IMG/VR virus record: IMGVR_UViG_3300028283_000002
Coordinates: 6,438-70,437 of that record
Reading direction: 5' to 3' (one strand)
DNA from: a virus
Length of the DNA: 64,000 nt
Positions 5,700 to 61,016 of this stretch are shown in pieces (position 1 is the first letter of the stretch; each line of letters begins with the position of its first letter). The notes beneath the pieces were generated by a model. That model saw only the letters and a program-made list of their open reading frames with translations, was not told the origin of the DNA and searched no databases. The translations under genes were made by a program, and so were the position numbers.

Positions 5700-7034
5700 T
5701 CAGCCTTGTTCTAGTTCAGCTAGGATTTCTGGTCTCATTCTAACTGGATAATCTTCTGGTACTCCAGATTCAGTAGATAATTCTACTGTCTCAACAACAT
5801 CTGGTATCCCAGCTGTTCCAACAACTCCAGTGTATGGATTATAACCCCAATCATAACCATTCCCAGAACTTGATCTTAGACCAGATTTTAGCTCTTCGCC
5901 TTTCTTTCTCTTCTCGGCGTATTCTTTTTTTTTAGCTTCTATAATAGTGTGATCATTATACTGATCATACTTTTCGTTAAATATATAATCTCTTATTTCG
6001 TCACAAAGAACAGCGTGATCTTTCCAAATCCATCTATCTAATGTATAAGACCTCATAGCGTTACCACTATATACATTCATATTCATATAATCTATATAGA
6101 CTATTTCACTAGACATATGAACGTCGTGTTCCATATCACAGAAAACAAAGTAATTATACATAAGATGACCGCCCCTGTGATCACTAACGCAAATCACGTT
6201 AGTATTATCCTTTGGTGTATAATTACTTATTTTCCTTGTTTCTAAATCTAACCACTTAAAAGTATCAAGATAAGGATATAACTCAAAATGAGACTTATCT
6301 AAAATAATATCAAATTCTTTTATAACTTCTTCGTCATTGAAAATCAAATGTTTAGGAGTAGACCAGTTATTAAATTTCTTGTAATAACATTTATTTTCTT
6401 TAGCCCAATTGTAGAAATAGTTAATGTATAAATCATTACATACGTAAATTCTATCCATTAATCTGAAATCTGCTCCGTTCCAAAGAACTGCTCTACCCAT
6501 TACTTTATCATGTTGGTCTAACATTACTAACATGTTAATCTGCTCGGGGTTTTCAACATAGATTTGAAAGAAATTACTGGGTACACAAGCCATACAGGAA
6601 CCACCGAGTGATCCTCTTCTTTCAAAATAATTAACTTGAGCGTAATATTTAGCGACATCTTCACCTTTAACGACTTCCATACGGAAGACAGGTGGATCGA
6701 CGATAGATAAGAATTGAGTAGTAAAATTTTCTAGTTCCCAATCGTGTATTTTAAAAAGTTTTTTAATAACACTACCAGGTCTAGCGTGGTAGCGTTTTTT
6801 AGGTTCCCAAAAATTTTTATCTTCTAATTCAATTTTATCAATTCTATCTTTGGTAAGATAGCTTAGGTGTCCTTTACTTGTATGGGAAAGATCGAAGTAA
6901 TTAAAATTCTTTTCGGGGTGAGATAGTGTATTATCGTCTATATCTTCTTGTAAGAGAAGTCTTGCGATATCACTATTAATCTTTACTAATACGTTTTTTA
7001 ACTCTGGTGTAATTATTAATTTTCTACTTGCCAT
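5700..7034 (-). CDS. SCM/RALLW/YMDR family paralog 1 (uncharacterised)
   Basis: GSLGGSCM, NPEQINML, GRAVLW, LMDRIY, YPYLDTF motifs shared with four other ORFs in the window. Confidence 0.8.
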   Translation of the reverse strand: MASRKLIITPELKNVLVKINSDIARLLLQEDIDDNTLSHPEKNFNYFDLSHTSKGHLSYLTKDRIDKIELEDKNFWEPKKRYHARPGSVIKKLFKIHDWELENFTTQFLSIVDPPVFRMEVVKGEDVAKYYAQVNYFERRGSLGGSCMACVPSNFFQIYVENPEQINMLVMLDQHDKVMGRAVLWNGADFRLMDRIYVCNDLYINYFYNWAKENKCYYKKFNNWSTPKHLIFNDEEVIKEFDIILDKSHFELYPYLDTFKWLDLETRKISNYTPKDNTNVICVSDHRGGHLMYNYFVFCDMEHDVHMSSEIVYIDYMNMNVYSGNAMRSYTLDRWIWKDHAVLCDEIRDYIFNEKYDQYNDHTIIEAKKKEYAEKRKKGEELKSGLRSSSGNGYDWGYNPYTGVVGTAGIPDVVETVELSTESGVPEDYPVRMRPEILAELEQG

Positions 7035-7037
7035 ATT

Positions 7038-7337
7038 TTAATTTATTGAAAATGCGAATGTGACTTTTATTTTAAAATGTATTCTTATACCATATGTTCT
7101 AGGCTCAATAACAGCAGTATATGGGTAATTATCGTAAAAGAATTTTTTAATTTCTACAAATTTTGATTTTGGATAAGTTCCGTATAAATCTACTTTATTT
7201 TCGTTATATGAATATGTTTGTATTTCACAACCGAAATCTCTTAACTTCTCAAACAAAAAACCACCTGATAACTCCATACAATTATCCCACAAGGAATAAA
7301 CTCTTTTACCGTCGTTGTAGTTACAAGTGTAATTCAT
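7038..7337 (-). CDS. Hypothetical protein
   Basis: 99-aa ORF in operon. Confidence 0.6.
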   Translation of the reverse strand: MNYTCNYNDGKRVYSLWDNCMELSGGFLFEKLRDFGCEIQTYSYNENKVDLYGTYPKSKFVEIKKFFYDNYPYTAVIEPRTYGIRIHFKIKVTFAFSIN

Positions 7338-7385
7338 TAAATTGGTATTTTAACAAAATTAACGATAATATCTCGAAAATACAAA

Positions 7386-8039
7386 TTATTTTTCATTTTT
7401 CTTAAATCCTCCTAATTGCCATATAAACATAGCGTTAAGGAGTGTTATCACCAGAGCAATCACTAACCATAAGTACATCCAAAATCCCACTGCTCCACCC
7501 ATTGACTGAGTAAATTGTTGCAAATCACTTTGAGGATGAACGTTGAAATTTAATAGTGCATCTATAAGAGTCATTGCACCAAGGGATATTAAAACGTAAT
7601 TACTGATTATAGCTAACTTCCAACTTACAATTAAAAAGAAAGCCGCAAAAATCAATAAGATTATTGAAGAACCAACAGAATTAAATAACATAATGGCGAA
7701 AAAAGCAAAGAATAAGAATAATAAAAAAGATATTATTCTTGATACTTTATAATTAGTGAACCCAAAAAATATAAATATGTTGGCAAATATAATACTACCA
7801 AGATAACCAGCCATCGTAACAATACCCATATTTCCACCACCTGTTTGAGTAAATCCACCGCCATCAGGCGATATTTCTATAAGAGATACATGTCCACCTG
7901 TTAACCAAGCACCTACAGCGTGTCCGCCTTCGTGTATAATAGTAACAAGATATTCAACTGGGACCATAATAATTCCCATTCCAATAGTGTTCATAAACAG
8001 GAACAATACCGCTGATAATAATAAAACTATAAATTTCAT
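7386..8039 (-). CDS. M50B-like membrane metallopeptidase
   Basis: IIHEGGHA (HExxH), GGG-T, MAGYLG motif and multiple TM helices. Confidence 0.85.
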   Translation of the reverse strand: MKFIVLLLSAVLFLFMNTIGMGIIMVPVEYLVTIIHEGGHAVGAWLTGGHVSLIEISPDGGGFTQTGGGNMGIVTMAGYLGSIIFANIFIFFGFTNYKVSRIISFLLFLFFAFFAIMLFNSVGSSIILLIFAAFFLIVSWKLAIISNYVLISLGAMTLIDALLNFNVHPQSDLQQFTQSMGGAVGFWMYLWLVIALVITLLNAMFIWQLGGFKKNEK

Positions 8040-15219: not shown

Positions 15220-15988
15220 TCATTCTTGGCCATAAAGGATGATTCGTGTTTCTTTGGCTGGTACTCTTACAGTTGGTAATCCTTCCCAATTTATCTTAAC
15301 TGTAGCGTTTGCTACTCTTTCAAGATAATTTAAGTTTTGAAATTCGTCTGTATTATGTTCTCTAAAACCACCACAAGATAAATTACTAACTTCTGGAATA
15401 ACAGGCATAAATACTGCTGAATCAGTATAATAACCACCTGGATCAGATTTAAATTCCATTTCATTAGATTTAAATTCAGATACTAAGGCTTCAACAAATT
15501 CTCTGGAGCAACATTGACCAGTATTCATACGTGATATAATTGATCCGTAACCTCTTCTATCAAAAGCTATACATCTATCGAATTGTTTGAACCAATCAGG
15601 TTTTTTAGAAAATATGCCTCTTGAACCTTTACAACCACCACCAGTAACTGGTTCTTCACCAATGAAAAAATAATAACAACCAGGCACATTATGTTCTATC
15701 ATATTTAACATAATAACCACACCAGCCTTATCATCTGAACCAAGAACAGTTTTACCGTCAGTTTTAACGTATTTACCGTCTTCGTAAAATACGTGATTAA
15801 CTTTATCTGCTTTTCTAATAATTATCAAGATGTGAGGTGAACATTGTCTTTGTTTCACCTATTATAATATAATAATTTCCAACTTCGTCTTTTTGAATAT
15901 TTTCTGGTAAGTACGGTTCCAGCATATCTTCTTGTTTATAAGGGGTAAGATATTCCGTAATTTCTATAAATATTTTTCTAACATCCAT
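15220..15988 (-). CDS. M28/M20/M42-like zinc peptidase, frameshifted near 15815
   Basis: ATG 15988 MDVRKIF...TMFTSHLDNY* then +1 frame: LGSDDKAG, FIGEE, AFDRRG, YTD, EHNTDE; AATATATA at 16011-16018 supports this start. Confidence 0.8.
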
Positions 15989-17453: not shown

Positions 17454-18776
17454 TTACTCTTCAAATAATTCTTGAAATAAATCACTTAAATCATCATCCA
17501 TTTCTTTTTGAGTTGGTTTACATTTAGATGCTATGTAACCTGGTTTACCTTTTTTTAGTTGATCAGAATCTGGTCTGCAATGAAAATTCTCGTCACCGTT
17601 TCCCCACACTGGTGTTGAAGTCATAGTTTTAGTTGGTTTTTCATATTTAACTTCATCTCTACCGTCTTTACCACGTGTAGTTACTATTGTATCATATTTA
17701 CTTGGATCAAAATAAATTACATTTGAAGTAGATGGTTTAACCTTAGTTAAGTCTAAACCAATTGTTTGTGCTGCTATTTTCATTGATACTGGATTTAATC
17801 CATCCATTGGCGTAACTGGTGAATCACCATCTATGGTGTGAGTTGGATATAGTTCAGAATTATCTATTTCTCTAACGAATACTCCAGGTGATTTATATTT
17901 TCTTTCTTGGAATTCTTCTTTTCTCTTTTGTAATCTTTCGTTTTGTTCTCTTAAATTAGTAATGATATTATGGCAACCGTGCACTTTAATTTCGTGTTCG
18001 GATATGATATAATCTTTATTATTAAAAGGAATTAAATATGCGTGAAATTCTACATCAAATGGAATACCTATTTCAAATATTTTATTTTCTAATTGATTTC
18101 TTATCTCATCAAAAGCTGAGAAAAAGATAGTATCGTAATCAATACTAATAATGTGTTCTGGGAATTCTTCTAAAATTGATTGTAAAATATTTCTTCCTGT
18201 TTCAGCCACAGCATCCGTGTTCCAACAAGTAAATAAAGAATGTCTAGAATTGACTGCTCCCCAAGTAAAATTAAGAAGTCTTCTTATCAATAAATCAACT
18301 CTCTCATTATTATATTTTTTAAATTCATCTTTGTTATTTAATAAGAACTTATATAGAATTGGAAACTTATCTGTGTTCCATTGAAGTTCTTGTTTGAAAA
18401 AACTCCTCTCTTCCCAATTCTCTTCACCGTAAGGATCTATATCTTTATGTGGTTTCTCTATTAAAGACAATTTTGATATAATCGTAGGATAAAAATCTTT
18501 GAAGGATAGTTCAGTAACACCCTTAAATATTCTATGCCTGTGTATTTCTTTTAATACGCTGAGTCCACCTCTGGTTGGTTCTTTTTCTGTTTTGAATTTT
18601 TTAATCTTGTATCCTGGCCACATTGTATCAAGAATGAGTTTCATTGTGTCTGTCCAGTCATCTAAAGAAAATTTAGGGGGGTTGTTGAAAGATTGTAATT
18701 TCTCGGGAGTGAGAAATTCGATAGAGTATTCGGTGCTATCCAGCAGGCGATATACATTTTCTATTGTTAATTCCAT
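17454..18776 (-). CDS. Degenerate family B DNA polymerase palm-like protein with internal DPYGEENW and C-terminal tail
   Basis: SFKDFYPTII (motif A-like), RRLLNFTWGAV (motif B-like), SIDYDTIFF (motif C-like). Confidence 0.6.
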   Translation of the reverse strand: MELTIENVYRLLDSTEYSIEFLTPEKLQSFNNPPKFSLDDWTDTMKLILDTMWPGYKIKKFKTEKEPTRGGLSVLKEIHRHRIFKGVTELSFKDFYPTIISKLSLIEKPHKDIDPYGEENWEERSFFKQELQWNTDKFPILYKFLLNNKDEFKKYNNERVDLLIRRLLNFTWGAVNSRHSLFTCWNTDAVAETGRNILQSILEEFPEHIISIDYDTIFFSAFDEIRNQLENKIFEIGIPFDVEFHAYLIPFNNKDYIISEHEIKVHGCHNIITNLREQNERLQKRKEEFQERKYKSPGVFVREIDNSELYPTHTIDGDSPVTPMDGLNPVSMKIAAQTIGLDLTKVKPSTSNVIYFDPSKYDTIVTTRGKDGRDEVKYEKPTKTMTSTPVWGNGDENFHCRPDSDQLKKGKPGYIASKCKPTQKEMDDDLSDLFQELFEE

Positions 18777-19851: not shown

Positions 19852-20232
19852 TTATTCACTAATATCTTCTTCACCGTATGGATCTAATTCGTTTACATTT
19901 CTATTAATTGTTCTAGTCCAAGTTATTGTTGATTTTTCAGGAATAAGAAAATCCTCTTCGTGACCGTTACTAACTCTACCAATAAAATGAAATTCATATT
20001 TTCTTTCATCTAGCACAACTTCACTAACTTTTATAGTCGCTCTGGCGTGCCATGTTCTAAGAGGCATTTTAAGATACTCAGAAACATTAACTGTTCTGCC
20101 TATCATTTCTTTTTTTAAATATTCAAATATATTATAGTAGGTTAAAAACTCATCACCCATTTCCCAAATAGATCTGGATATGGTTATATCTTCAACTGAT
20201 TCTTTAACGTAAGATGAAAAATTAATGATCAT
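19852..20232 (-). CDS. CTS-like N-terminus, putative beta-barrel, DPYGEE tail protein
   Basis: MIINFSSYVKES ... NELDPYGEEDISE*. Confidence 0.75.
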   Translation of the reverse strand: MIINFSSYVKESVEDITISRSIWEMGDEFLTYYNIFEYLKKEMIGRTVNVSEYLKMPLRTWHARATIKVSEVVLDERKYEFHFIGRVSNGHEEDFLIPEKSTITWTRTINRNVNELDPYGEEDISE

Positions 20233-20698
20233 CCCAATCCTCCTCTCCGTAAGGATCATGTTTAGATACTATGACTTTTGGTTGAATAAATGTAAATTCA
20301 TACATTTCTTTTGTAGATAAGATAAACAGAGAATCATCTGCTTTCACATTGATAACAATAGAATCATCTATAATTTCTACACCGTGATTTTTACCTACCG
20401 TGACTTTATGACCAGCCTTTGCCCCAAAAACTAAGAAAGGCTCGTTTTGACTGATTAAAATGGTGCTAGTACCAATATGTCTTAATCTAATATATCTTCC
20501 ACTAGATTCACATATTGCCTTGATTCTATTACCACAAGCAATTATATCTTTGTGATCTAAATTGTACAACTCTTTTAAAGACATAACCATAGGTTTATTC
20601 TTTCTTTCATCTTCTGTTTCGTGTGGGGGAAGAGCCAAAGGGGCATTCTTAAAAAGACTAGCATCAGATTGATCGAATTGTTCGTAAGTTTTTATCAT
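20222..20698 (-). CDS. CTS-like N-terminus plus DPYGEE tail protein
   Basis: MIKTYEQFDQS ... HDPYGEEDWDDH*. Confidence 0.8.
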   Translation of the reverse strand: MIKTYEQFDQSDASLFKNAPLALPPHETEDERKNKPMVMSLKELYNLDHKDIIACGNRIKAICESSGRYIRLRHIGTSTILISQNEPFLVFGAKAGHKVTVGKNHGVEIIDDSIVINVKADDSLFILSTKEMYEFTFIQPKVIVSKHDPYGEEDWDDH

Positions 20699-20726: not shown

Positions 20727-21131
20727 TTAATCGTCCCACTCCTCTTCACCGTACGGATCTTCTATCGTATAAATTCTTTTCGCTAACGCAACCTTAACTG
20801 GAAACTCTAAATTAACCATTATATCGGCATTTCTAATATCAAACCATATTTTGTGAATAGTTTTATTAGTGTGCCTATCGTATCTCTCGCTATATTTTAT
20901 TCTCTCGACCGTAACGGTCATTGGTTCAACCATTTTAATTATTTCTCCCGATGTATCACTATACATCCAATGAAATTGTACTATCTTATTTAAAAATAAT
21001 TTATCCAGATATCTAGTAAGAAGTCCGTTATCATTTAGTTCCCACATTTCAATTGTATCAATATAATCATCACATATTTTTAGAAGATCATACGATTTGT
21101 AACTTGAAAAATTTTCAAATATCTTAATCAT
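20727..21131 (-). CDS. CTS-like N-terminus, putative beta-barrel, DPYGEE tail protein
   Basis: MIKIFENFSSY ... EDPYGEEEWDD*. Confidence 0.8.
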   Translation of the reverse strand: MIKIFENFSSYKSYDLLKICDDYIDTIEMWELNDNGLLTRYLDKLFLNKIVQFHWMYSDTSGEIIKMVEPMTVTVERIKYSERYDRHTNKTIHKIWFDIRNADIMVNLEFPVKVALAKRIYTIEDPYGEEEWDD

Positions 21132-21570
21132 CCCACTCCTCCTCTCCATATGGATCTAAGGTCTTATCAACAACTATCTTTTTCCTTTCTTCTTTTAAAT
21201 GTACTATTACTGGTTCTAACGGGTAAACTTCATATGTATCAATATGACCAGACACCATAAAACTTATCGTAACATCAAAATCAAAAAAAGTAGTTACATC
21301 TACACTCAATATAACTCCAGTGATCTTCATCCCCTTCTTTTTTTCAATGTTACCTCGTGGATTTACATATTCCTCATCTTTATAAAATGTGCAAAGTTTA
21401 TTTAACACTTTCCTTTTTAATATCTCTTCAAATTGTTGGCAATCAACGTAATCGTCGTCTGGATTACAACATTTTTGACCTATATCAACAAGACTAACTT
21501 CTTCCGTGAATGGATATTCTAATAGAAGATCATCTATTTTATTTTCAAATATTTCAAATTTAGTTATCAT
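21124..21570 (-). CDS. CTS-like N-terminus, putative beta-barrel, DPYGEE tail protein
   Basis: MITKFEIFENK ... LDPYGEEEWDD*. Confidence 0.8.
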   Translation of the reverse strand: MITKFEIFENKIDDLLLEYPFTEEVSLVDIGQKCCNPDDDYVDCQQFEEILKRKVLNKLCTFYKDEEYVNPRGNIEKKKGMKITGVILSVDVTTFFDFDVTISFMVSGHIDTYEVYPLEPVIVHLKEERKKIVVDKTLDPYGEEEWDD

Positions 21571-45929: not shown

Positions 45930-46570
45930 TCATCATCCCATTCTTCTTCACCGTATGGATCGAAAGGATTTATTCCTCCAATGATCTTTATTGGTTTTCT
46001 ATGATCTATGTAGAAAGATTTACCGTCTTCTGTATAAATTTTTAACAGATCTCCTTGATGAATAGCATCCAGTGAAATTGTAATTTTTACTGGAACACAT
46101 TTAGCTATTTTTTTAATATTTGGATTAGAAGCATTAAAATTCGATAAAGCATCAGCGTTTTTACTTCCTGTAAAAGTAATTTCTTTTCCAAAATATTTCT
46201 CAAATTCTTTCATAAACGTATCTATGAAAAAGAATCTACCTGTTGGTGATATATCAAAATATACACTATGTCTTCTATCACTTGATCTAACTAAATAAGG
46301 TGTACAGTATTGACTTTCACTGGCTCTGTGATATATTACGTCTTCAACATTCATTATAGCGTTATGAGAAGTACTCATATTACATTTAAAAGTTTCAGAC
46401 ATGAAGTTATTTGTGTGGAAAGACACTATTCTACCAACAAGATGGTCTCTGAAAATTTCAGCCATTTTTTCACCAGCTTCAGTATCAATTCTTCTAATAT
46501 CATCAGAGAAACTAATAACTTTATCAGTTTTCATAGCCTCATTTAAAAAATTATTGAATTTAGTTCTCAT
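45926..46570 (-). CDS. CTS-like N-terminus, two putative beta-barrels, DPYGEE tail
   Basis: MRTKFNNFLNEAMK ... FDPYGEEEWDDD*. Confidence 0.75.
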   Translation of the reverse strand: MRTKFNNFLNEAMKTDKVISFSDDIRRIDTEAGEKMAEIFRDHLVGRIVSFHTNNFMSETFKCNMSTSHNAIMNVEDVIYHRASESQYCTPYLVRSSDRRHSVYFDISPTGRFFFIDTFMKEFEKYFGKEITFTGSKNADALSNFNASNPNIKKIAKCVPVKITISLDAIHQGDLLKIYTEDGKSFYIDHRKPIKIIGGINPFDPYGEEEWDDD

Positions 46571-46914
46571 TTTTCCCAAACTTCTTCACCGTAAGGATCT
46601 AACTCAGAGTGAGGATTAATTTTTCTTTTCTTTTTAATTTCAATAGCCTCTTTGTACGTCTTTGGACATTCACCTCCAACCATATCAAACTCTTTTTCTG
46701 TTAATACTATCGCTTTATAAGTATATCCTAAAGCAAATATAGCGTCTTTGGCTGATAGATTATGGTTTTGACGTTTTAATTTACCGTCAACATACATACC
46801 AATCCAATCACCGTCTGTACTTTCTACAAATCTTATAACTGGATCTGGTCTTTCATAAGAAGATTCATCACTTAGATTTACACCTATTGCTTCATTAAAT
46901 TTTTTAATTTTCAT
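46567..46914 (-). CDS. CTS-like N-terminus plus DPYGEE tail protein
   Basis: MKIKKFNEAI ... ELDPYGEEVWEK*. Confidence 0.8.
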   Translation of the reverse strand: MKIKKFNEAIGVNLSDESSYERPDPVIRFVESTDGDWIGMYVDGKLKRQNHNLSAKDAIFALGYTYKAIVLTEKEFDMVGGECPKTYKEAIEIKKKRKINPHSELDPYGEEVWEK

Positions 46915-48079: not shown

Positions 48080-49501
48080 ATGGAAAATATGTTAAAATAT
48101 CAAGAATTTATAAATGAGTCTAAGATAGACTCCACTTACGCTGATAACGAGAATAAGCATAGATTATTATTTTCTGAAACTATAAGTAAAGATTTTTCTG
48201 AAAGGAGAAACGAATTTCCTCTATTTTATCAATTCTATTTAGATTCTGACGTATTTTACGGTCTTAGATTTATTACAGATAATGATGATATAGATAGAAT
48301 TGTAGATGATTACGAAAATATTAGATTCACTCTACTTCTATCTAGATCTTATAGAGATACAGAAGACGAACTCCCTGGTGATCATAAACACCTTTTAACA
48401 TACGAAGGCGGTAGATTTAATCTTTCACAAATTATAGAAAATAAAGAAAATTATTATTTTTATAAAATAGTTGAAGGGCCTAGAAATAATAATATACCGA
48501 ATTGGGATGAAGCTGTTGATTTTGAACAAATTAACGAAAAGAGATGGATATTTGTTATAAGAAAAGAATCGACTTGTTCTTTGGTTAAAACTGAATCAAG
48601 AGAGAGTAGTGGCACTTGGGCTGAAAGACATTTATCTAAATTGTATGGTTGGAAAGAAGATCCAAAAAAAATAAAATTAAATTTCACTTATAACGGTGCT
48701 GCTATTACAAGGGCTAATGGTTTAATAAATACAGTTTTTAATTCGACTGATGCTGATATATTTGAAATAGAAGATAATCCAGAAACTTGTTTCAAATACG
48801 ATCTAGTTATGCCGGATGGTAAAAAAATAGAAGTGAAAAAATATAATATAAAAGAAATTTGGAAAAATAACGCACCTGTTCCTATCTTACTAGCTCAACA
48901 AATTAGAATGGCTAGTAGAGAAACACTTGTTAAAATTGTGAGAATGTACAGAGATTTATTAGAAGAAGACACACCCGAATATGACGCAGTAAATGATTTA
49001 GTAGAAATGCAACCAAGAGAACTTCAAGATTATTTCGATGTTAGAAAACAACCAGGCGGAAGATTAAATCCAATATGTACAACTATAAAAGCCTATTATA
49101 ATTCAAGAATAAGAAGACTTGTGGAAAAATTTAACGCGATGAACCAAAATCTTTGGATGCAAGGCATTTACGGTATTTATTTTTGCGATGAAGATAGAAC
49201 TACTAGAAAAAGAGATTTCCTTGTTAAAGTTGGTGAAAACGGTGTTAGGAATTTCAATTATTTCTGGAGAGAATTTAATAGTTGGTTGGGGTTCAACGAA
49301 TTAAAATTATTTATGACTGTAAAAGGTGAAGCGTGGGAATACATCTTATCTGAATGGGACACTTTTGTTAGGACTTTTCAAGTAGAGAATCACGAAGAAT
49401 ATCTTGCTGATATTGAAAATGGTGAAATAGATATAGATGATAAGACGTATAAATATAACGATATGGATCACTATTGGGTAGAAGAGCCAAAAGAAGATTA
49501 A
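48080..49501 (+). CDS. CTS-bearing protein with PD-(D/E)XK-like nuclease motif
   Basis: MLKYQEFINESK; WAERHL...FKYDLVMPDGKKIEVKK. Confidence 0.55.
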   Translation: MENMLKYQEFINESKIDSTYADNENKHRLLFSETISKDFSERRNEFPLFYQFYLDSDVFYGLRFITDNDDIDRIVDDYENIRFTLLLSRSYRDTEDELPGDHKHLLTYEGGRFNLSQIIENKENYYFYKIVEGPRNNNIPNWDEAVDFEQINEKRWIFVIRKESTCSLVKTESRESSGTWAERHLSKLYGWKEDPKKIKLNFTYNGAAITRANGLINTVFNSTDADIFEIEDNPETCFKYDLVMPDGKKIEVKKYNIKEIWKNNAPVPILLAQQIRMASRETLVKIVRMYRDLLEEDTPEYDAVNDLVEMQPRELQDYFDVRKQPGGRLNPICTTIKAYYNSRIRRLVEKFNAMNQNLWMQGIYGIYFCDEDRTTRKRDFLVKVGENGVRNFNYFWREFNSWLGFNELKLFMTVKGEAWEYILSEWDTFVRTFQVENHEEYLADIENGEIDIDDKTYKYNDMDHYWVEEPKED

Positions 49502-50665
49502 TTACAAATACATATCATTACTTACCTGGTTAACATTACTTGTATTTCTTACTTGAAAATTAGTATTTGCTGATATAAAACCAGAACCAACTGGGCTTCT
49601 TATTGGTTTATAAGGAGATATAATATCAGAATTCTTTATAGTGGCATCAGGAGCACCTCTAGCCACACTTCCCTCAACGTCAAAACTAACTAGATAAGTA
49701 TTATTAGGATAAACTTTTAATATTTTAACAGGAGCTGGTTCACCTGTTAGATTGTGGGTGATCATAACATAATCGTCTTTAATTGGATCAAATCTTTTTT
49801 CGTAGAGTTGATAACTCATAACGTGATTAAACCCTTCATTTCTTGCGTTTTCCATAGCTCTTATCCTTCCTTTTATTGTCTCTATTTCGTTCGAGAGAGT
49901 TTCGTAATCTTTTGTACCTTTTTTGGTTCTTGCCAGTGTAGCCTCGTAACCTTCGAGTGTTTGTCTTAGTAGAGCAAGTCTTCTTAATCTATTTTGAATT
50001 GGATCTTTTTCTGCTTGTTGATTGGGTCTCGCTGCTCTCCTAGCTCTTGGTGGTGCTTGATAATTGTAATCTTTATCTTTTGAAGAAGACTGTTTTTTCT
50101 CTGGTCTTGTTTTAGCTTTACCACTTTGGATGAATGGATAAACTGTATCTAAAATAAATATTTTAAAATCTGCGTAATTTAATCCAGATACCTTGTAATC
50201 GTAATCTTTTTCACCATATTTTATATTAACATGAAAAACAGGCATACGGATAGTATTATCGAAAGTGACCACAAAATCTAAATTCACGTGACTTATATGT
50301 AAATTATCACATTCTATTTTTATATAATTACGATTAGGAATAGATAGATAACAGTCTCTATAATTCCTATATATGAATTGAACAACAGCGTTCCAAGTAT
50401 CTTGAAATTCTTGTTTTTGTCTTTCTTCTTCTTGTTTTTGTCTTTCTTCTCTTTCTTCGGTCTCTCTTCTCTGTCTTTCAGCTCTTTCTTCTCTTTCTCT
50501 TTTTTCTTTTTCTGCTTTTTCTTTAGCCATTTTTTCTTTAGTTCTCAAAGAAGGTTCACCCTTGATATCTTTACCAGTGGCAACTTCGTAATCTAAAAAA
50601 TTTCTCATCCATTTTGGACTTCTATAAATCGCTTCATTCGCCTTCTGGTTTCTCATTCTTACCAC
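49502..50665 (-). CDS. Multi-module protein with coiled coils and C-terminal Tudor/SH3-like domain
   Basis: E/R/K-rich coil; internal NEGFNHVMSYQLYEK followed by VKILKVYPNNTYLVSF. Confidence 0.65.
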   Translation of the reverse strand: MVRMRNQKANEAIYRSPKWMRNFLDYEVATGKDIKGEPSLRTKEKMAKEKAEKEKREREERAERQRRETEEREERQKQEEERQKQEFQDTWNAVVQFIYRNYRDCYLSIPNRNYIKIECDNLHISHVNLDFVVTFDNTIRMPVFHVNIKYGEKDYDYKVSGLNYADFKIFILDTVYPFIQSGKAKTRPEKKQSSSKDKDYNYQAPPRARRAARPNQQAEKDPIQNRLRRLALLRQTLEGYEATLARTKKGTKDYETLSNEIETIKGRIRAMENARNEGFNHVMSYQLYEKRFDPIKDDYVMITHNLTGEPAPVKILKVYPNNTYLVSFDVEGSVARGAPDATIKNSDIISPYKPIRSPVGSGFISANTNFQVRNTSNVNQVSNDMYL

Positions 50666-50999
50666 TAATTATTTTTATGCCATATTTATCTGCCCAATCA
50701 TATATCTTATCTAAATATGGTAATATATTCTTCTCATTCTTTTCCTTTACCAACTTAACCAAATCATTCCAACACTCTTTACCTATACCAACTAAATTAT
50801 CTTTCTTACCAAGTAAAGCGTCTTTATATTTTTTAATGAACTCATTTACGTTCTTATCCTGCGAATATTTATTCCAAATATCAGTAACATCATACTCTAG
50901 TTCCCAATTAACTTCTTGAACGTCAAAATCATCCATAGAGTCTTCAATGGTAAGAGTAGATTGTTCGTTAACAAAGTCTTTGTAACTAGTTTTTATCAT
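50634..50999 (-). CDS. Hypothetical protein with CTS-like N-terminus
   Basis: MIKTSYKDFVNEQ. Confidence 0.7.
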   Translation of the reverse strand: MIKTSYKDFVNEQSTLTIEDSMDDFDVQEVNWELEYDVTDIWNKYSQDKNVNEFIKKYKDALLGKKDNLVGIGKECWNDLVKLVKEKNEKNILPYLDKIYDWADKYGIKIISGKNEKPEGE

Positions 51000-51015
51000 G
51001 TGTCTATAATTCTTT

Positions 51016-52188
51016 TTAGTCATGGTCTACGTAATTATAATATTGAAATGATTTCGCTTTATAATCTATATTCAAAGCGTCTGGTGTTAATAATTGGTTT
51101 GTATCTCTATTAAAATATTTGAAAGTGTCCATAAAAGGATTGTTTTGAGGAACACCGTAATCTCTTTTCACAGTAACTCTCTTCACACCGTTACGATCTC
51201 TTACCCAAGGACCTATCATATTATTCTTTTTACAATATTCAACCATCTTTAGTTCACTTGTATTATCTACTGAATAAATCCTATCCATGTAAACAGTACC
51301 GTCATCTAATTTCCAAATAAGTACTCTAGCCATCAACATCCCCTTATCATCTGTTAATATACCCATTGCGCATTTATCTGGATTTTCACAATAAATATCA
51401 AATCTTTTTTGCGATCTAGATGATCTCATACAAGAACCACCGATAGATCCTTGATGACCAGTTTCGCCTTTTCCGTAGGTAGTGCCAAGGTACCATTTTC
51501 TTATGTCCTCACCAACAACTACTTTCAAATTATCTTCTACGTTCTTTATTGTTTTTTCCCACAATAATTTAAATTGGGGAATAAGTGCGTCTATTTCTTT
51601 ATCAGTTAGATCTGGATCTAATTTTCTGAAAAATTTACCAATTTTCATAGTTTGTCTAAAACTGGCTTTATATGGATCTACTGCTTTATTTTTAATTTCT
51701 GATTTGAATTTGGATATAGGTACAAAAGAAATTAAATCACTTTTTTCAAAATCAACATTAACAAAACAAATATCGATATATTTTTTCTTTATTTTAAATT
51801 TTAGTTCAGCCAGAATATCTTTAATAAATTTACTACAATCAAATTCGACTAGATTTCCTCTAAGAAAATCTTTAGCTTCTTCTGGTGTAATTTTTATAAG
51901 ACTTCTGCCTTGACTTTTTGTGATAGTAAATGTATCTGTAAGTCTATATTTATGATAAGGCATCCATTGATAATCCCTTAATTTATTTTCTGGATCATCT
52001 GGTTTTTGTACTTTGATAGTATAAAAAGTTATTTTATCAACATCTGTAATAGTTTCAACTATAGCTAGTTTACCGTTAAGTTGTTGAACGCCACGAAAAT
52101 TCTTATCACAGATAACGTAGTCACCCTCTTTTATCTCTTCCTTTTTAACTGCTTCATTCAAAACTAAAAACTCATCATATTTGATCAT
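51016..52188 (-). CDS. SCM/RALLW/YMDR family paralog 3
   Basis: MIKYDEFLVLNEAVKK; GSIGGSCM, NPDKC, ARVLIW, YMDRIY, NPFMDTF, YVDHD*. Confidence 0.8.
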   Translation of the reverse strand: MIKYDEFLVLNEAVKKEEIKEGDYVICDKNFRGVQQLNGKLAIVETITDVDKITFYTIKVQKPDDPENKLRDYQWMPYHKYRLTDTFTITKSQGRSLIKITPEEAKDFLRGNLVEFDCSKFIKDILAELKFKIKKKYIDICFVNVDFEKSDLISFVPISKFKSEIKNKAVDPYKASFRQTMKIGKFFRKLDPDLTDKEIDALIPQFKLLWEKTIKNVEDNLKVVVGEDIRKWYLGTTYGKGETGHQGSIGGSCMRSSRSQKRFDIYCENPDKCAMGILTDDKGMLMARVLIWKLDDGTVYMDRIYSVDNTSELKMVEYCKKNNMIGPWVRDRNGVKRVTVKRDYGVPQNNPFMDTFKYFNRDTNQLLTPDALNIDYKAKSFQYYNYVDHD

Positions 52189-52973: not shown

Positions 52974-53843
52974 TTATTCCCATACATATAATCCATTTCC
53001 CCAATTCCTGGAATTTAATCCACACTTTCTACAAATCCAACCTCCACCATGTTCTCTTTCCACCTTTGATTTTTTGTTACATTTAGGACAAGTATATATT
53101 TGAGTATCATCGTTATAAAAATCACTCAAAGGTAAAACCCCAGCGTCTAAAGGATTATTATAGTCTTCTAAAGGTCCATCAAAACCAAACACCTCATGGT
53201 CTGTGTCGTCAAATTCTTCTCCAAAAGAACAAACGTGCTTATCTCCTAAAATTTTCCCAATAAATTTATTTTGACCGTACCTGTTATTATTAGCACGCCA
53301 CTCAGCTAACAATTCATCACCTCTAGCCATTTGTTGGTGATATAGTTCTATCTCTCTATCCCATCTACCTGGTTGCCTTGCTAACTCTCTATCATCCCAA
53401 ATCTCTTCCCCGTATGGATCTAGTTCTCCCCTTGGATCACCAGCTTTATATTTAGTATTTTCATCAACCTCCCACAACTCTTCACCGTAAGGATCTAGAT
53501 ATGGGTCAAAAATTTGTTTAATAGAGGACATCACTTCTATTTTATCGTTAAATGAAATGGAAGTGAAATTTTGATCTTGTGGGTTCTTTGTAGAAAATAA
53601 TTTAAAATAATCTCTATTTGGCCAAACAACTACTCTCATTGGTACGATGTTTGTATTCTTAACTCTTCCTCTAAAATCTTTTTGTACTATATTTAATCTT
53701 CTACCTAATAACATTTTTTTAAATTGAGGTATAGCTCTCTTTCTATCGTTGGCGCATTGTAACAACACTTCATTGAAAGAAAAAACGTCCCCAATTTTAA
53801 CTGTAACAGCTTCATTTATATATGTAGAAAAATTAGTTATCAT
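52974..53843 (-). CDS. CTS-like N-terminus, two internal DPYGEExW motifs, C-terminal Zn ribbon
   Basis: MITNFSTYINEAV; LDPYGEELW; LDPYGEEIW; CPKC...CRKC. Confidence 0.75.
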   Translation of the reverse strand: MITNFSTYINEAVTVKIGDVFSFNEVLLQCANDRKRAIPQFKKMLLGRRLNIVQKDFRGRVKNTNIVPMRVVVWPNRDYFKLFSTKNPQDQNFTSISFNDKIEVMSSIKQIFDPYLDPYGEELWEVDENTKYKAGDPRGELDPYGEEIWDDRELARQPGRWDREIELYHQQMARGDELLAEWRANNNRYGQNKFIGKILGDKHVCSFGEEFDDTDHEVFGFDGPLEDYNNPLDAGVLPLSDFYNDDTQIYTCPKCNKKSKVEREHGGGWICRKCGLNSRNWGNGLYVWE

Positions 53844-54824: not shown

Positions 54825-55136
54825 TTATTCATCTTCCCATACTTCTTCACCATATGGATCTAATTCTCCTCTTGGGTTTCCACCGATATCTTCGAACGCG
54901 GATCTAAGTTCATTTAGAATAGTAAACAAAGCGTTCGAAAAATCACCAATAGTAACGTTTTCAATTATTTTTTTACTATCGTGTTTAGAAAGCTCTTTTT
55001 TAGTTTCATCCCTCAATGATCTCAATATGTTGATTATATCAGTTTTAGAAATCCAAATATCGCCATCGATCTCTTTCCATTTACTAGATCTCAACCCTTT
55101 ATGTTCATCAGATTCGTTAAATCTTTTAATTCTCAT
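54825..55136 (-). CDS. CTS-like N-terminus plus DPYGEE tail protein
   Basis: MRIKRFNES ... PRGELDPYGEEVWEDE*. Confidence 0.8.
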   Translation of the reverse strand: MRIKRFNESDEHKGLRSSKWKEIDGDIWISKTDIINILRSLRDETKKELSKHDSKKIIENVTIGDFSNALFTILNELRSAFEDIGGNPRGELDPYGEEVWEDE

Positions 55137-55171: not shown

Positions 55172-55210
55172 AAATAAAAATCCCAGACTTTCGATCTGGG
55201 ATTTTTATTT
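55172..55210. terminator. Bidirectional rho-independent terminator after rtcB
   Basis: AAATAAAAATCCCAGA-CTTTCGA-TCTGGGATTTTTATTT perfect 16-bp stem. Confidence 0.85.
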
Positions 55211-56699
55211 ATGACTTACCTCTTATTGTTCTTAATATCTTTCGATCTTTTCTAAATTTTTTATTATCTACAAAATCATCATCGCCTATTTGACGTTTCT
55301 TTTCTTTTTCATTCTTTCTCATATCTTTAAAATTTTCATTTTCAGATGATTTTATATTTAATATTGGTTTAATTCTATCTATGATAATAGCTGTTGGACC
55401 AATAGCTTTTTCAATCATTTTAGGATCTTTATAAACTCTTGGACTCTCATCCAATGTTGATTTACATACAGAAGTTGAAACTATGTTTTTCATATCAAAT
55501 TTGAATCTTTCTAAATCTAATGTTCTGTTTGCTTGTCCTCTGCTCATAATTCTACCAGCTCCATGATTTGCTGAAAAATTCCATTCGGGGTTAGATTTAC
55601 CTTCACATATTAACATACCATCCTTCATAGAAAGTGGAATAATCATTCTTTGTCCAATGTACGACGTTATGGCCCCTTTACGGATAATCATATTTTCTTC
55701 TTCAAAATTTATATAGTTATGAATAGATTCAATTCTTTCCTCTTCTTTCAAAGATAAGGCTTCAAGTATTCTATTTATAATAGTTTCTCTATTAAATTTA
55801 GAATAAAATTGAGCAAAAATCATATCCGTAAAATAATCTATAGCATATTGACCTTCTAAATATTCAGAGCCATTCATATTAGTTTCAAAATCAATATCCA
55901 ATTCTTTCTTGATATCTTTAATCTTGAAATCAATATCTATTTTTGGAAAATTCCTTTTAATATCTTCTATTTTTTCTTTTAAAATTACTCTTCTCTTGTA
56001 TTCGAGATTTTCTTTGGCTATTTTCATATGATATTCACATATCATTTTTCCGAAATTTCTAGAACCAGTATGAACAGTGATCCAAAAAGTTTTATAAGTA
56101 TCTGATAATCCAATCTCTAGATAATGATTGCCGGACCCGAGCGTTCCTATACCAAATTCAGCATTTTGTCTCATTCCAATTTGTTTGCATTTTTCAATGA
56201 ACCAATCGTATGTAAATTCAATTGAAGTATAATTGGTATTAAATTTTTTATTATAACATAGAATAAATTTCTTAGATTGATCATTAGTTTCTTTCCAATT
56301 AAAATTTTCCTCAAAATAATTAGATGGAACAGAACTTCTATCCATGATATTATTCCCCATAGGTATAATTTTTCTAATTTTTTCATTAATTTTTAAAAGT
56401 TCATCTCTGTTAGTCGTGAGAATTTTACCTACATTAACAGATAAAACTGAACATCCAATGTCTACGCCGATCCAAGCTGGGGATAATTTTTCACCTAATT
56501 CTATGGTCATTCCGATCACAGCATTCCCCGCACCTGCGTGAACGTCTGGCATTACTACTATTTTACAACCCCTTGTCGCAATATTACTCACGATATTGTA
56601 AATCTGTTTCAATGCAGATTCTTCAACATCATCTATCATAATCTTAGCAGTTGTGTATTTTCCCTTAATTTCTAACATAATTTTTATGTATTTATACAA
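55209..56699 (-). CDS. rtcB: RtcB RNA ligase
   Basis: MPDVHAG, GVDIGC, GTLGSGNHYLE, HTGSR, IHNY, RKGA, HGAGR.MSR, DESP..YK. Confidence 0.95.
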   Translation of the reverse strand: MYKYIKIMLEIKGKYTTAKIMIDDVEESALKQIYNIVSNIATRGCKIVVMPDVHAGAGNAVIGMTIELGEKLSPAWIGVDIGCSVLSVNVGKILTTNRDELLKINEKIRKIIPMGNNIMDRSSVPSNYFEENFNWKETNDQSKKFILCYNKKFNTNYTSIEFTYDWFIEKCKQIGMRQNAEFGIGTLGSGNHYLEIGLSDTYKTFWITVHTGSRNFGKMICEYHMKIAKENLEYKRRVILKEKIEDIKRNFPKIDIDFKIKDIKKELDIDFETNMNGSEYLEGQYAIDYFTDMIFAQFYSKFNRETIINRILEALSLKEEERIESIHNYINFEEENMIIRKGAITSYIGQRMIIPLSMKDGMLICEGKSNPEWNFSANHGAGRIMSRGQANRTLDLERFKFDMKNIVSTSVCKSTLDESPRVYKDPKMIEKAIGPTAIIIDRIKPILNIKSSENENFKDMRKNEKEKKRQIGDDDFVDNKKFRKDRKILRTIRGKS

Positions 56700-56792: not shown

Positions 56793-56954
56793 ATGACAAA
56801 ACAAGAAAGAAAAATGATAAGTTTTAGACTTCACGCAGATTTATATGAATTTATTAAAAAAAATTCAGAAATTGATTATGCGTCGATTTCTAGATATATT
56901 ATAAATTTGATAATAGAAGATAAAAAAAATAAAGAAAAAAATGAAAAGAATTAA
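56793..56954 (+). CDS. Ribbon-helix-helix protein, 53 aa
   Basis: Manual translation MTKQERKMISFRLHADLYEFIKKNSEIDYASISRYIINLIIEDKKNKEKNEKN; TTATATATA at 56759-56767. Confidence 0.75.
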   Translation: MTKQERKMISFRLHADLYEFIKKNSEIDYASISRYIINLIIEDKKNKEKNEKN

Positions 56955-58101
56955 AAAACCTAATGGATATTGGTCCTTTGAAAGATGTCAAAAAGAGGCC
57001 TTAAAATATAATACCAGAAAAGAATTTTTTCTAAAAAACTCAGGGTGTTATGATAAATCTATTAAACAGGGTTGGATGGAACAAATATGTGGACACATGG
57101 TCATGGGTAGTGTTTTTTGGACTAAAGAAAAATGTCAAGAAGAATCCTTGAAATACAAAACTAGAAATGAATTTAGATTAAATAGTTTGGCTTACGCTTC
57201 ATCATTAAGAAACAAATGGTTAGATGAAATTTGTTCACACATGTCAGAAATTAGGAAACCGACTGGGTATTGGACAAAAGAAAGATGTAAAGAAGTAGCA
57301 GAAAAATGTGATTCAAAAATAGAATTCAATAGAAAATATAGAGGAGCATATTTATCTTCATGTAAAAATAATTGGTTAAATGAGATTTGTTCAAATATGA
57401 TAGGACCAAACAGGAAAAATAAAAAATGGTTGATATATTCCTTTATAATTTTAGATAAATATGTATATATTGGATTAACAAGTGATGAAAAATCGAGAAA
57501 TCACTTTCATTTAACTAATAAAAAAAGTGCAGTTTATCAATTCACAACAGAAAATAAAATTGAAAAAGAAAAAATTAAATATAAGATCGAAATAGATAAT
57601 ATAGTAGATGAAAATCTATCAGCTTCATTAGAAAAATTTTATTTAAATTCATATTTGAAAAAAGGATATATTAAGTTGAATAAGAATGAAACTGGCGGTT
57701 TGGGCGGAATGATTTTGAAATGGACGAAAGAAAGATGTGAAGATGCAGCCAAATCTTGTAAAACTAGATCGGAATTTAGTAATAAATTCGAAGGCGCGTA
57801 TAGTTCATCTAGAAAAAATAAATGGTTAGAAGAAATATGTTTTCATATGAAACCGATTAATAGAAAACCAAATAATTACTGGACAAAAGAACTATGTTTT
57901 GATATAGCTAAGAATTACAAAACTAAATATGAATTTGAAAAAAAATCTAAAGGCGCCTATAAATATGCTTTAAGAAATAATTTATTGCGTTCCGTGATAA
58001 GTAACACCTGGTTTATTTGGTGTTCTATTACTCAAGTAATACCTTTTATTCTTCTCATCTACACAAGAGTACCTCATTGTGTCCATGAATGGATTTCCTG
58101 A
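56941..58101 (+). mobile_element. GIY-YIG homing endonuclease with tandem helical repeats
   Basis: LIYSF...VYIGLT...R...E...N core flanked by about five YWTxExC...YxxRxEF...WL repeats. Confidence 0.85.
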
Positions 58102-59109
58102 TGATGGTTTGTGTTTACCACCCCAGTCTTTAGGTAATGTTACTTCCAGGAGACCAGCGTCTCCTATATTGTAACTTTTCATACCATTTTTCTTGGCGTA
58201 ATCCATTAAAATAGTTTTTTCTTCTGGTCCTATTGCATATACTCTATCCATGTAAACTTGCCCGTCATCTAATCTCCATACAACTGCTCTAGCCATTAAT
58301 TTATCGTCTTCGTTTGTATATGTACAAAGAGCAATTTTATCTGGATTTTCACAATATAAATTAAAATAAACAGAACAACTTGAGCTACTCATACAAGAAT
58401 TCCAAAGTTCTGACGAACCATAAGAACTCTTAGCGTAATGTTCGTTACTATACCAATATCTAATATCTTCACCTGTAACTACATCAAGATTTTTACCTTC
58501 ACCGAGTACGATGACTTTAAAAGCCGCCCTATAAAGAGTAACTAATTCCTCAACTTGTTTATCAGATAATGTTGGAATAAGTTTTTTAAGAGTTCTACCA
58601 ACCTTCATAGCTTGTCTACCTTTTTTAAGGTCTGGGTCGCCTTCAAATTTCTTTGCTGGAAGATATGTTATAACTTCCATATTATCTTTATCAATATCAA
58701 AGAATGATACGTCAATATATTCTTCTGTTGGTTCGAATTTCATTCTTCTAAAAATTCTTAATAATTCAGTAGATGCTTTATAAGGTACAACTTCTCTATT
58801 TTGAATTTTCTTTGCTAAATCTTCTGGAATTATTTCATAAATATTATCTATTGGTACGTACAAACAATGTTTTGGTTTGCCTATGTCTTTGTGACCAGAG
58901 TGTAATCTAGGAGAAAAAGAAACAAGAAATTCGATAAGAATATAACCATATTCCTTCATTTCGATAACGTTACCAAGTTGGGAACTAACATCAATACCGT
59001 CCCATTGACCCATGGTTCTCACCATTTTACCAATAGCTAGGTCTGCTCTTGTTGGTTTCTTAGGTGTTTTTTTCACAGCTTCATTTATAAAATTGTTATA
59101 AGTTATCAT
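57982..59109 (-). CDS. SCM/RALLW/YMDR family paralog 4
   Basis: MITYNNFINEAVKK; SELWNSCM, NPDKI, ARAVVW, YMDRVY, NPFMDTM. Confidence 0.8.
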   Translation of the reverse strand: MITYNNFINEAVKKTPKKPTRADLAIGKMVRTMGQWDGIDVSSQLGNVIEMKEYGYILIEFLVSFSPRLHSGHKDIGKPKHCLYVPIDNIYEIIPEDLAKKIQNREVVPYKASTELLRIFRRMKFEPTEEYIDVSFFDIDKDNMEVITYLPAKKFEGDPDLKKGRQAMKVGRTLKKLIPTLSDKQVEELVTLYRAAFKVIVLGEGKNLDVVTGEDIRYWYSNEHYAKSSYGSSELWNSCMSSSSCSVYFNLYCENPDKIALCTYTNEDDKLMARAVVWRLDDGQVYMDRVYAIGPEEKTILMDYAKKNGMKSYNIGDAGLLEVTLPKDWGGKHKPSSGNPFMDTMRYSCVDEKNKRYYLSNRTPNKPGVTYHGTQ

Positions 59110-59126
59110 TTCTTTATCAGATTCTT

Positions 59127-59849
59127 TTAATTTTCCCAATTCTCTTCACCGTAAGGGTCTAGGGTCTTTAATCTCATATCCATTATTTTAATTGGTTGTG
59201 TATGAATTAATAATTGTGAAGTTTTATCGTCACATTCAACTATGATAAAATCTTGTGTTGTACCATTATGTACACCAATTCTAATAACATGTTTAGTGTA
59301 TTTTATTTGATCTCCGCCTTTTATCGGTTTACCCTGATAGGTTAAGAGTTGATCAAGAAAATGTTCTTCAAAGAAATCTAAAAATTTACCAACATCAAAT
59401 AACTTCGATTTTCCTTCGTCTTGCCAATTATATCTTACCTTTCTTTCCTTATCTTCAAATATAACAGGGTAATAATCACCCTTATTGTTACCAAGTATTA
59501 CGTCATTTACTTCTAAAATCTTTTGTCTTCCATTTTCATCCACCACACCAATTATCTTACCATTTATGGATTTTTTCAATTCTTCTATCATTAACTCAGC
59601 AGATTCTTTCTTTGCGCTCTCAACTGCGACCTTTTTTTCTTTTTCTAGGTCACTCATTTTTTTCTTAAGTTCAGCCAGAGCCTTCTCTATATCTCTAGTG
59701 TTCTTATTAGTGGTATTGGTCAAAATATTTTGAAAATCATTATAAAATGACTTAGTATCGTATATTTTCTTAGCTCCTGGTGGATCTGGTTTTATCATAT
59801 CTTCATTTAAGACTTCAAGATTTAAATAAGAATTATATTTCTTTAACAT
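59127..59849 (-). CDS. CTS-like N-terminus, two putative beta-barrels, DPYGEE tail
   Basis: MLKKYNSYLNLEVLNE ... LDPYGEENWEN*. Confidence 0.75.
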   Translation of the reverse strand: MLKKYNSYLNLEVLNEDMIKPDPPGAKKIYDTKSFYNDFQNILTNTTNKNTRDIEKALAELKKKMSDLEKEKKVAVESAKKESAELMIEELKKSINGKIIGVVDENGRQKILEVNDVILGNNKGDYYPVIFEDKERKVRYNWQDEGKSKLFDVGKFLDFFEEHFLDQLLTYQGKPIKGGDQIKYTKHVIRIGVHNGTTQDFIIVECDDKTSQLLIHTQPIKIMDMRLKTLDPYGEENWEN

Positions 59850-59945
59850 GATACTATATATAATTTTTTAAATCTTATTTTTTGAATTACAAAGTTAGAA
59901 AAATTTTTCAAAATATCTATTTTATTTTTCTTATATATTAATTTT

Positions 59946-61016
59946 TTAATCGTGATCTACATATTCCCAATACTCTCCAGCTTTGAAATTTCTAAATCTA
60001 TTAGTTAAATAATCTCCCGTTGTGATAAAAAATTTAAACGTGTCCATGAAAGGATTATCATGTGGTGTTCCGTAATCCATACCCATATTGACTCTTAGAA
60101 GTATTCCCTTCTTATCTACTTCAGCCTTAGTTAAAAACCCTTTCTTCTTGGCGTAGTCTAAAAATAATTTCTCAATAAAATCTTCAGTACAATAAATTCT
60201 ATCCATATAGATAACACCCTTTGGTTCGTCTAATTTCCATAATAAAGCCCTACCTAATAATCTACTCATTGGATTTAATATGTATAACAATTTCACTTTC
60301 TCTGGGTTGTTAGTGTAGATGGGTAATCTTCTTTGTGAACGAACGTGTTTCATACAAGATTGGTGTAAAGAACCACCTCCTTCAGCGTAAAACATTTCGA
60401 GGTACCATTTGGCCATATCAATGCCTTTTGCTATTTTAAATCTACCGAAATCATCTTTATTAAGATTAAATGAAAATTTATAATCGTTAATATAATCTTC
60501 TATTATCATATCAGTATCGTTAATAATTTTCTTTAGAAATCTTCCCACTCTAATATTTTGACGCATAGTTGAAGTCCAAGGATCTTCACCTTTATCTAAT
60601 CTTTTAAAATTATCAGCACTTAAACAAGACACTGTATCGTTTCTTTGTGTTACGTCAATATAAGATACGTCACAGAAAAATATTTTTTCGTAATCTAAAA
60701 GAAATTTTAAACTATAAGCAGAGATGTCTTTGAATTTTCTAGAATACATTAAAGGTATATTATCATCACTCTTATTATTAATGAATAAATCTGTCCATTT
60801 TGGATCTCTTATAAACCAACCGTTATTATTATATATCTCGCCTCCTAAATCGTGTAATTTATCGTTAAATCTATTTAAAAATTGTACACCACTCTTTTTT
60901 AATACTCCTATATGGTTATGTGTTTTCAAGTCATCGATGTCCCCGTTAACAACTACAAGGTCGCCAACTTTGGGTACAATAACAGATTCTTCAAATAGTT
61001 TATAGGATAACATCAT
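59946..61016 (-). CDS. SCM/RALLW/YMDR family paralog 5
   Basis: MMLSYKLFEES; GSLHQSCM, NPEKV, GRALLW, YMDRIY, NPFMDTF, YVDHD*. Confidence 0.8.
   Translation of the reverse strand: MMLSYKLFEESVIVPKVGDLVVVNGDIDDLKTHNHIGVLKKSGVQFLNRFNDKLHDLGGEIYNNNGWFIRDPKWTDLFINNKSDDNIPLMYSRKFKDISAYSLKFLLDYEKIFFCDVSYIDVTQRNDTVSCLSADNFKRLDKGEDPWTSTMRQNIRVGRFLKKIINDTDMIIEDYINDYKFSFNLNKDDFGRFKIAKGIDMAKWYLEMFYAEGGGSLHQSCMKHVRSQRRLPIYTNNPEKVKLLYILNPMSRLLGRALLWKLDEPKGVIYMDRIYCTEDFIEKLFLDYAKKKGFLTKAEVDKKGILLRVNMGMDYGTPHDNPFMDTFKFFITTGDYLTNRFRNFKAGEYWEYVDHD

Follow-up and report, generated by a model that had tools for sequence, protein, structure and literature searches.

An unnamed phage protein family with a GNAT-like fold, expanded in megaphages: candidate group transferases for protein or peptide substrates

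What does a phage gain from six copies of a gene whose product matches no named protein family? The question is raised by a stretch of 64,000 nucleotides, here called the window, which corresponds to bases 6438–70437 of the IMG/VR virus fragment IMGVR_UViG_3300028283_000002 (152.7 kb, 30% G+C, estimated to be ~21% complete). Proteins of the window are 93–95% identical to those of LR756501, the complete 735-kb genome of an ‘uncultured phage’. A first-pass annotation of the window had noted five to six paralogues of an enzyme-like domain, and had guessed at a PcfJ-like or GNAT-related fold. The best reading of these proteins is a tentative one, somewhat short of an even chance: they would be divergent GNAT-fold group transferases which act on a protein or peptide substrate, have multiplied in megaphages and may be packaged there as effectors for injection.

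All six of the genes proposed by the first-pass annotation are open reading frames (ORFs; Table 1). The five main copies, P0001 to P0005, are clearly paralogues: in a database of 106 ORFs they find one another by BLASTP with E values of 6e-11 to 6e-50, and they match a hidden Markov model (HMM) of the family with E values of 1e-71 to 1e-102. Each carries the complete motif set, G.L..SCM, Y..NP.K, (G/A)RA..W, MDR.Y and NP(F/Y)MDT. For P0004 a longer TTG start exists at 59139, but the ATG at 59109 is preferred because the LR756501 orthologue starts there. The sixth copy, P0006, had been called divergent. By profile comparison it is a true but distant branch of the GNAT-like, C-terminal half of the family. 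An HMM built without P0006 gives it only 12 bits (E 4e-4 in the window); an E value of 1e-43 was discarded as circular, since the query alignment had included P0006 itself. When a profile built from 55 of its own relatives was compared with the family profile, hhalign returned a probability of 93.9% (E 1.6e-7, 146 columns) for an alignment spanning beta1 to the P-x-x-D motif. P0006, which has 72 homologues, retains the S-C, Y..N, GR and P..D motifs, but neither the Trp nor the MDR motif is present and the N-terminal subdomain is missing as well. No copies beyond these six were found in the 152.7-kb record.

The family is very large, unnamed and essentially restricted to phages. A profile search of 1.84 billion representatives recovered 6,138 clusters, defined at 50% identity, and 3,034 of these scored E≤1e-30. 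All genomic contexts examined are phage-like. When the genomes of 185,579 cellular species were scanned with a pattern, the only matches were a single element type, carried by Cysteiniphilum-like genomes, and a weak one; the family was present in 0 of 400 other sampled genomes from the phylum of the latter. Pfam and NCBIfam scans of the window proteins and 20 distant members gave no match for the core, and PHROGs scans gave only weak matches to families without known function (phrog_21169 for P0001; residues 37–97 of P0002 match phrog_22041). Family profiles searched against all PDB chains gave chance matches only, to antibody light chains at E ~0.4 or worse. Across 94–97 homologues sharing ~30% identity, the residues S, C, M, Y, R, W, D, R and Y are invariant, and N, P, D and T are either invariant or close to it, depending on which alignment is used. 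Such a mostly polar and aromatic set is a pattern typical of a ligand or catalytic site.

The conserved region covers ~250 residues and consists of a small alpha/beta N-subdomain (YID..ISYL, RQ..K.G) followed by a diverged GNAT-fold domain. The usual architecture is that of P0001, with no leader, ~30 residues, the core and a long C-terminal part; in distant relatives the last often ends in a DnaJ-type CxxCxGxG zinc finger. In P0001 itself, residues 296–352 (window ~5980–6150, minus strand) are predicted with high confidence to form four tandem 15-residue beta-hairpin repeats, followed by a predicted 28-residue helix and a disordered acidic tail. In phages of ordinary size, canonical members have no leader, number one or two per contig and lie among non-structural genes. 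Three LR756501 ORFs (453031–453699, 454432–455049 and 701202–701816) match the N-terminal half of the profile only, to position ~200; together with P0006 they indicate that the two subdomains also exist separately. Some smaller phage contigs have two members in tandem or a few kilobases apart (L019 6842–9520, L029 10001–12685, L027 6055–11173), and so duplication of the gene is not limited to megaphages.

What kind of fold does the core adopt? Two independent AlphaFold models, of P0005 (pLDDT 90.6) and P0001 (pLDDT 90.2), both retrieve GNATs only for the core, with Z scores of 5–6.7 and an rmsd of 2.7–4 Å over 90–120 aligned residues; Foldseek probabilities for the core reach 0.99–1.00 at E ~0.01. 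For the P0001 model the first 50 rows list nothing but GNAT enzymes, the best being AAC(3)-Ia (1bo4_A; Z 6.7, rmsd 3.5 Å, 107 of 137 residues), while the P0005 core matches them with Z ~6. Because the matches are exclusive to GNATs and the two models agree, a GNAT-like fold is the best description of the modelled core. The guess of a GNAT-related fold thus appears to be borne out at the level of fold. The first-pass annotation had named a match of the core to a known structural, non-catalytic family as grounds against its reading; the fold predicted is instead of an enzyme type, matched in both models to GNAT acyltransferases only.

With AAC(3)-Ia, RimI (7n1l) and VipF (7wx5) the core, as modelled, shares the topology beta1-alpha1-alpha2-beta2-beta3-beta4-alpha3-beta5 plus a hairpin. 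In the secondary-structure register S-C-M opens alpha2, G-R-A-L-L-W forms beta3 and M-D-R-I-Y forms beta4. Sequence similarity to the superfamily is not detectable, and two GNAT features, the Q/RxxGxG/A pyrophosphate loop and alpha4, are absent. Peculiar to the family are the invariant Ser-Cys at alpha2, an Asp-Arg on beta4, an extra N-subdomain and a P-x-x-D-T motif. In GNATs the reaction centre lies between the alpha1-alpha2 region, the beginning of beta3 and the C-terminal end of beta4, and it is there that the invariant residues of the family appear to fall. The family is therefore best described, from its models, as having a GNAT-like fold that lacks the GNAT cofactor site. Since the canonical loop for acetyl-CoA is missing, the name ‘acetyltransferase’ cannot be assumed.

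The other guess, that these proteins are a distant branch of the PcfJ family (PF14284), is very improbable. It has in its favour a likeness of pattern, PcfJ having L.HCVGS..Y where the family has L..SCMK..Y, with a beta-rich segment after the Cys motif in both, and both occur on mobile elements. A single short hhalign segment does set the two motif regions in register, but there is no statistical similarity: the Pfam PcfJ model has no match in the genome at E≤10, and hhalign gave a probability of 0.1–0.2% against pCF10 PcfJ and its relatives. The last comparison is a weak test, for the PcfJ profile drew only on close Enterococcus copies and is shallow (Neff 1.5).

The best functional clue is the company that the gene keeps. 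In five independent contexts, out of eleven context types, a gene resembling M20/M28 zinc peptidases lies directly beside a family member; these are the Cellulophaga phage phi38:1, Thermus phage TSP4, the Cysteiniphilum element, the metagenome contigs L019/L029 and a cluster in LR756501. Bacteroidota phages, Thermus phages and an element from a proteobacterium are thus all represented. In phi38:1 the order is gp038 (the peptidase homologue), then gp037 (the family member), and in TSP4 a ‘metal-dependent hydrolase’ precedes the family homologue. In the Cysteiniphilum element the family gene overlaps the downstream peptidase gene by 4 nt, and in LR756501 peptidase homologues lie within and beside the family cluster at 434–441 kb. 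The peptidase homologues match Pfam M20, M28 and M42 weakly and have intact metal-ligand motifs (HxDT, GADDxAG, EE.G..GS and H..E) typical of co-catalytic zinc peptidases. Taken with the DnaJ-type and SH3-like fusions, this adjacency suggests that the substrates are peptides or proteins. Five copies of the peptidase family are found in LR756501. One of them, M28-like, at 435605–437026 (L012 1603–3027), has a C-terminal extension ending G.G.I..I...V.V.F that, on its sequence, resembles a barrel of the SH3/KOW type. Other candidates for a fixed operon partner, namely RtcB, RNA ligase and endolysin, were rejected, as none recurs as a direct neighbour.

The wider neighbourhood raises another reading, namely an RNA- or tRNA-directed enzyme belonging to a phage RNA-repair or translation-takeover set, comparable to FemX, L/F-transferase or the GNAT toxins that acetylate tRNA. 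The tRNA-splicing ligase RtcB lies within the paralogue block of the window, phi38:1 gp037 is seven genes from RtcB on an arm that carries tRNA genes, and genes for RNA ligases, RNase R, an AAA_33 kinase, and Metallophos or HD proteins occur within 10 kb of family members (L017, L004/L020, L019, L028). FemX, AtaT2 and GmvT are among the Foldseek rows. GNAT-fold aminoacyl-tRNA transferases are without the CoA loop, and its absence here is a likeness to them. Yet the FemX and toxin rows score no better than ordinary GNATs, and no RNA gene is a direct, repeated neighbour. Genes of this kind are common in the accessory regions of large phages and enrichment is not demonstrated, while no tRNA genes were found in the window. 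An RNA-directed role is accordingly judged unlikely.

How might such an enzyme be used by a megaphage? In T4, a short N-terminal leader is borne by effectors that are injected together with the DNA. LR756501 encodes 15 full-length and three half copies of the family in several clusters. Four copies begin at the canonical N-terminus; most of the others begin with a leader, M..(Y/F)..(F/Y)(I/L/V)NE(A/S), which is followed by an extra domain. In the window the same kind of start, M..Y..F..E, was confirmed on the four copies on which it had been reported, and is absent from P0001. With the residue after the leader set off, these starts read MITYNNFINE/A, MIKYDEFLVLNE/A, MMLSYKLFEE/S and MIKDYLKFNE/S. 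They end in aliphatic-x-Glu and resemble MKTYQEFIAE, the capsid-targeting sequence (CTS) of T4, after which internal proteins are cleaved (PMC8442874). The leader is ~10-fold enriched at N-termini over internal positions in the window, and in 35 orthologues of P0005 it takes the form MILSYKxLFE with E9 invariant. It also stands on ORFs outside the family (45926–46570, 48080–49501, 52974–53843 and 59127–59849), and probably on 50634–51023 from an internal Met.

In T4 the internal proteins and Alt, with their CTS and gp21 cleavage, likewise share a ten-residue leader of aromatic, aromatic, aliphatic and Glu positions on proteins that are otherwise unrelated. The family has no homology to IPI–III or Alt, and its leader-bearing members are candidates for packaging in the head. 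A second parallel is offered by giant phages, whose heads carry large paralogue families and ejection proteins (PMC5694885). SPN3US family B (~20 members) and the inner-body proteins of phiKZ (PF12699) show the same lineage-specific expansion, here to 15–18 copies, with copy number varying among relatives. The phiKZ_IP model PF12699 itself has no match, nor does any Pfam model match the six window proteins at E≤1. Unlike the head paralogues of phiKZ and SPN3US, the family has an enzyme-like fold and extends to phages of ordinary size, where a contig has one or two copies and these lack the leader.

The domain that follows the leader may serve in targeting. In P0005 this barrel matches CAP-Gly, KOW and SH3-like domains with Z scores of 6.2–6.6, and BLASTP alignments between paralogues extend into the N-terminal barrels. 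The first-pass annotation had described different SH3-like domains at the N-termini. Their SH3/KOW/CAP-Gly-like character stands, but the barrels are not unrelated, being diverged forms of one domain in at least three copies. Its picture of one core joined to variable modules holds in this sense, that the core is joined either to a C-terminal part, often with a DnaJ-type finger, or, on four copies, to a leader and barrel. Modular targeting by the N-terminal domains is plausible. In the P0005 barrel (window ~60780–60980, minus strand) C23, H35 and H55 are near-invariant within THNHIG and KLHDL motifs among the 35 orthologues, and to judge from this conservation they may form a metal site.

These elements can be assembled into a model of a GNAT-fold group transferase. 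The topology would place the invariant polar residues along the substrate-binding cleft of GNAT enzymes, with Ser-Cys where alpha2 begins, Arg and Trp on beta3, Asp-Arg-x-Tyr on beta4 and P-x-x-D-T following beta5. In P0001 the residues concerned are S146 and C147, R181, W185, D194, R195 and Y197, and P254 and D257. With neither the pyrophosphate-binding loop nor alpha4 in place, the donor probably binds in another way than acetyl-CoA does in classical GNATs; it could conceivably be an aminoacyl-tRNA or some other activated donor, perhaps with a Cys-linked intermediate. The family protein and the M20/M28-type zinc exopeptidase might then form a two-step module that trims and modifies peptide termini. 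In megaphages, copies which gained the T4-CTS-like leader and the SH3-like barrel would be packaged into the head and cleaved after the Glu of the leader. On infection they would be ejected and act in the host as an effector set, each member directed by its N-terminal module.

Several results weigh against this model. The fold match is modest, for with Z below 8 such scores can reflect a shared arrangement only, and the placement of the invariant residues around the reaction centre is argued from topology only. The Q/R-x-x-G-x-G/A loop is not present, the consensus after beta4 being MDRIYT-x-x-D with no conserved Gly, and no helix is predicted at the position of alpha4. No Pfam GNAT model matches the six window proteins at E≤1 (among 94 homologues PF00583 touches one, at E 0.042), and, as neither His nor Glu is invariant, there is no textbook catalytic set to point to. 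Six of the eleven independent context types have no peptidase within 7–10 kb. In the window itself the peptidase gene is frameshifted and lies 8 kb from the nearest family copy; its LR756501 counterpart (494995–495732) is uninterrupted, and the frameshifted gene is either a pseudogene or an assembly error. As to packaging, a T4-type prohead protease is below the Pfam cut-off in both genomes: PF03420 gives a sub-threshold match in LR756501 (E ~1e-5) and none in the fragment from which the window comes. The leftward, operon-like block that holds the four copies with a leader also contains RtcB, not an obvious late or head gene. In phi38:1, gp037 belongs to the non-structural arm, and the record, which does label virion proteins, gives it no structural label. 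Given that this protein is also leaderless, packaging, if real, would be derived in the megaphage copies.

Some of the same facts would suit a GNAT-like scaffold without catalysis. It could serve for binding or as an adaptor, or else inside the head, as the ‘inner body’ paralogues of phiKZ and SPN3US do, and its conserved residues would stabilise the fold or contact a partner. In favour of this are the loss of the canonical cofactor loop and of alpha4, and the lack of a match to any Pfam enzyme model; the P0006 branch, without MDR and Trp, is still conserved in its 72 homologues. The copies are numerous and diverging and carry the CTS-like leader, and giant phages are known to have head paralogue families of up to 20 members whose function is unknown (PMC5694885). 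However, an invariant Ser-Cys, Arg, Asp-Arg and Tyr over thousands of clusters would be unusual for a pure scaffold, and the repeated adjacency of an intact zinc peptidase suggests a pathway. A role in the head fits poorly with canonical members that are leaderless, number one or two per contig and sit amid the non-structural genes of ordinary-sized phages, and there is no match to PF12699 or to any other Pfam family. A scaffold is for these reasons considered rather doubtful.

The group-transferase reading also has a bolder form, which is improbable as a whole. In it the family would be a new branch of the GNAT fold that does not use acyl-CoA and that, together with the M20/M28 exopeptidase, rewrites the termini of proteins or peptides, for example by trimming followed by aminoacyl or acyl transfer, so creating or masking degrons. 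The 15–18 megaphage copies would then be injected effectors, packaged in the head and directed by their barrels to different host proteins.

The window as a whole is an accessory-gene region, with a radical-SAM enzyme, an M50B peptidase, RtcB, a GIY-YIG-like ORF, a glycosyltransferase and a weak gp23-like ORF. The GIY-YIG-like ORF is convergent with P0004, with which it shares ~120 nt at the 3' end of P0004, and has the look of an inserted homing endonuclease. A further motif, DPYGEExW(D/E), occurs 12 times in 11 ORFs of the window, mainly at the extreme C-terminus. Five of these ORFs alternate with the paralogues in the leftward block from 61 to 46 kb, P0004 lying 18 nt downstream of one of them (59127–59849), and none of the paralogues bears the tag. 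A complex prediction for the CAP-Gly-like N-domain of P0005 and the C-terminal tag of this ORF scored 0.01, which speaks neither for nor against docking.

Table 1. Positions and predicted features of the family copies and of other genes in the window
Feature	Position in window	Strand	Description
P0001, 444 aa	5700–7034	minus	Canonical architecture, without leader or N-terminal barrel; N-subdomain, GNAT-like core (~115–238), PYLDT motif, hairpin repeats (296–352), long helix, disordered tail
P0002, 364 aa	46961–48055	plus	Leader MIKDYLKFNES, N-terminal domain, core
P0003, 390 aa	51016–52188	minus	Leader MIKYDEFLVLNEA, N-terminal domain, core
P0004, 375 aa from ATG at 59109	57982–59109	minus	Leader MITYNNFINEA, N-terminal barrel, core
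P0005, 356 aa	59946–61016	minus	Leader MMLSYKLFEE, SH3/KOW/CAP-Gly-like barrel (14–79), N-subdomain (~105–190), GNAT-like core (191 to ~300–310), NPFMDT motif
P0006, 322 aa	53840–54808	minus	Distant relative; GNAT-like (C-terminal) half only
M20/M28-like zinc peptidase gene	15220–15987	minus	Split by frameshift at ~15860, just past the SHLD metal-ligand motif
RtcB tRNA-splicing ligase	55209–56699	minus	Pfam E 2e-55; in the middle of the paralogue block
GIY-YIG-like ORF	56941–58101	plus	phrog_20046, E 3e-54
482-aa ORF	35864–37312	minus	Sub-threshold match to T4 Gp23 major capsid protein (E ~6e-5, 23 bits)
DPYGEExW(D/E) ORFs inside the paralogue block	45926–46570, 46567–46914, 52974–53843, 54825–55136, 59127–59849	minus	
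Other DPYGEExW(D/E) ORFs	2915–3442, 17454–18776, 20222–20698, 20727–21149, 21124–21570, 22145–22474		

The family forms thousands of clusters in many marine and freshwater phages, including the largest phage genomes known, and is still nameless in Pfam and NCBIfam. Interest in it is moderately high because of this size and anonymity, the link to a peptidase and the expansion in megaphages. The T4-like leaders on the expanded copies provide a concrete test of whether megaphages inject diversified sets of effectors, and since phi38:1, with gp037 and gp038, is in culture, the question is accessible at the bench. Once worked out, the reaction of the family could reveal a widespread route by which phages modify host proteins.

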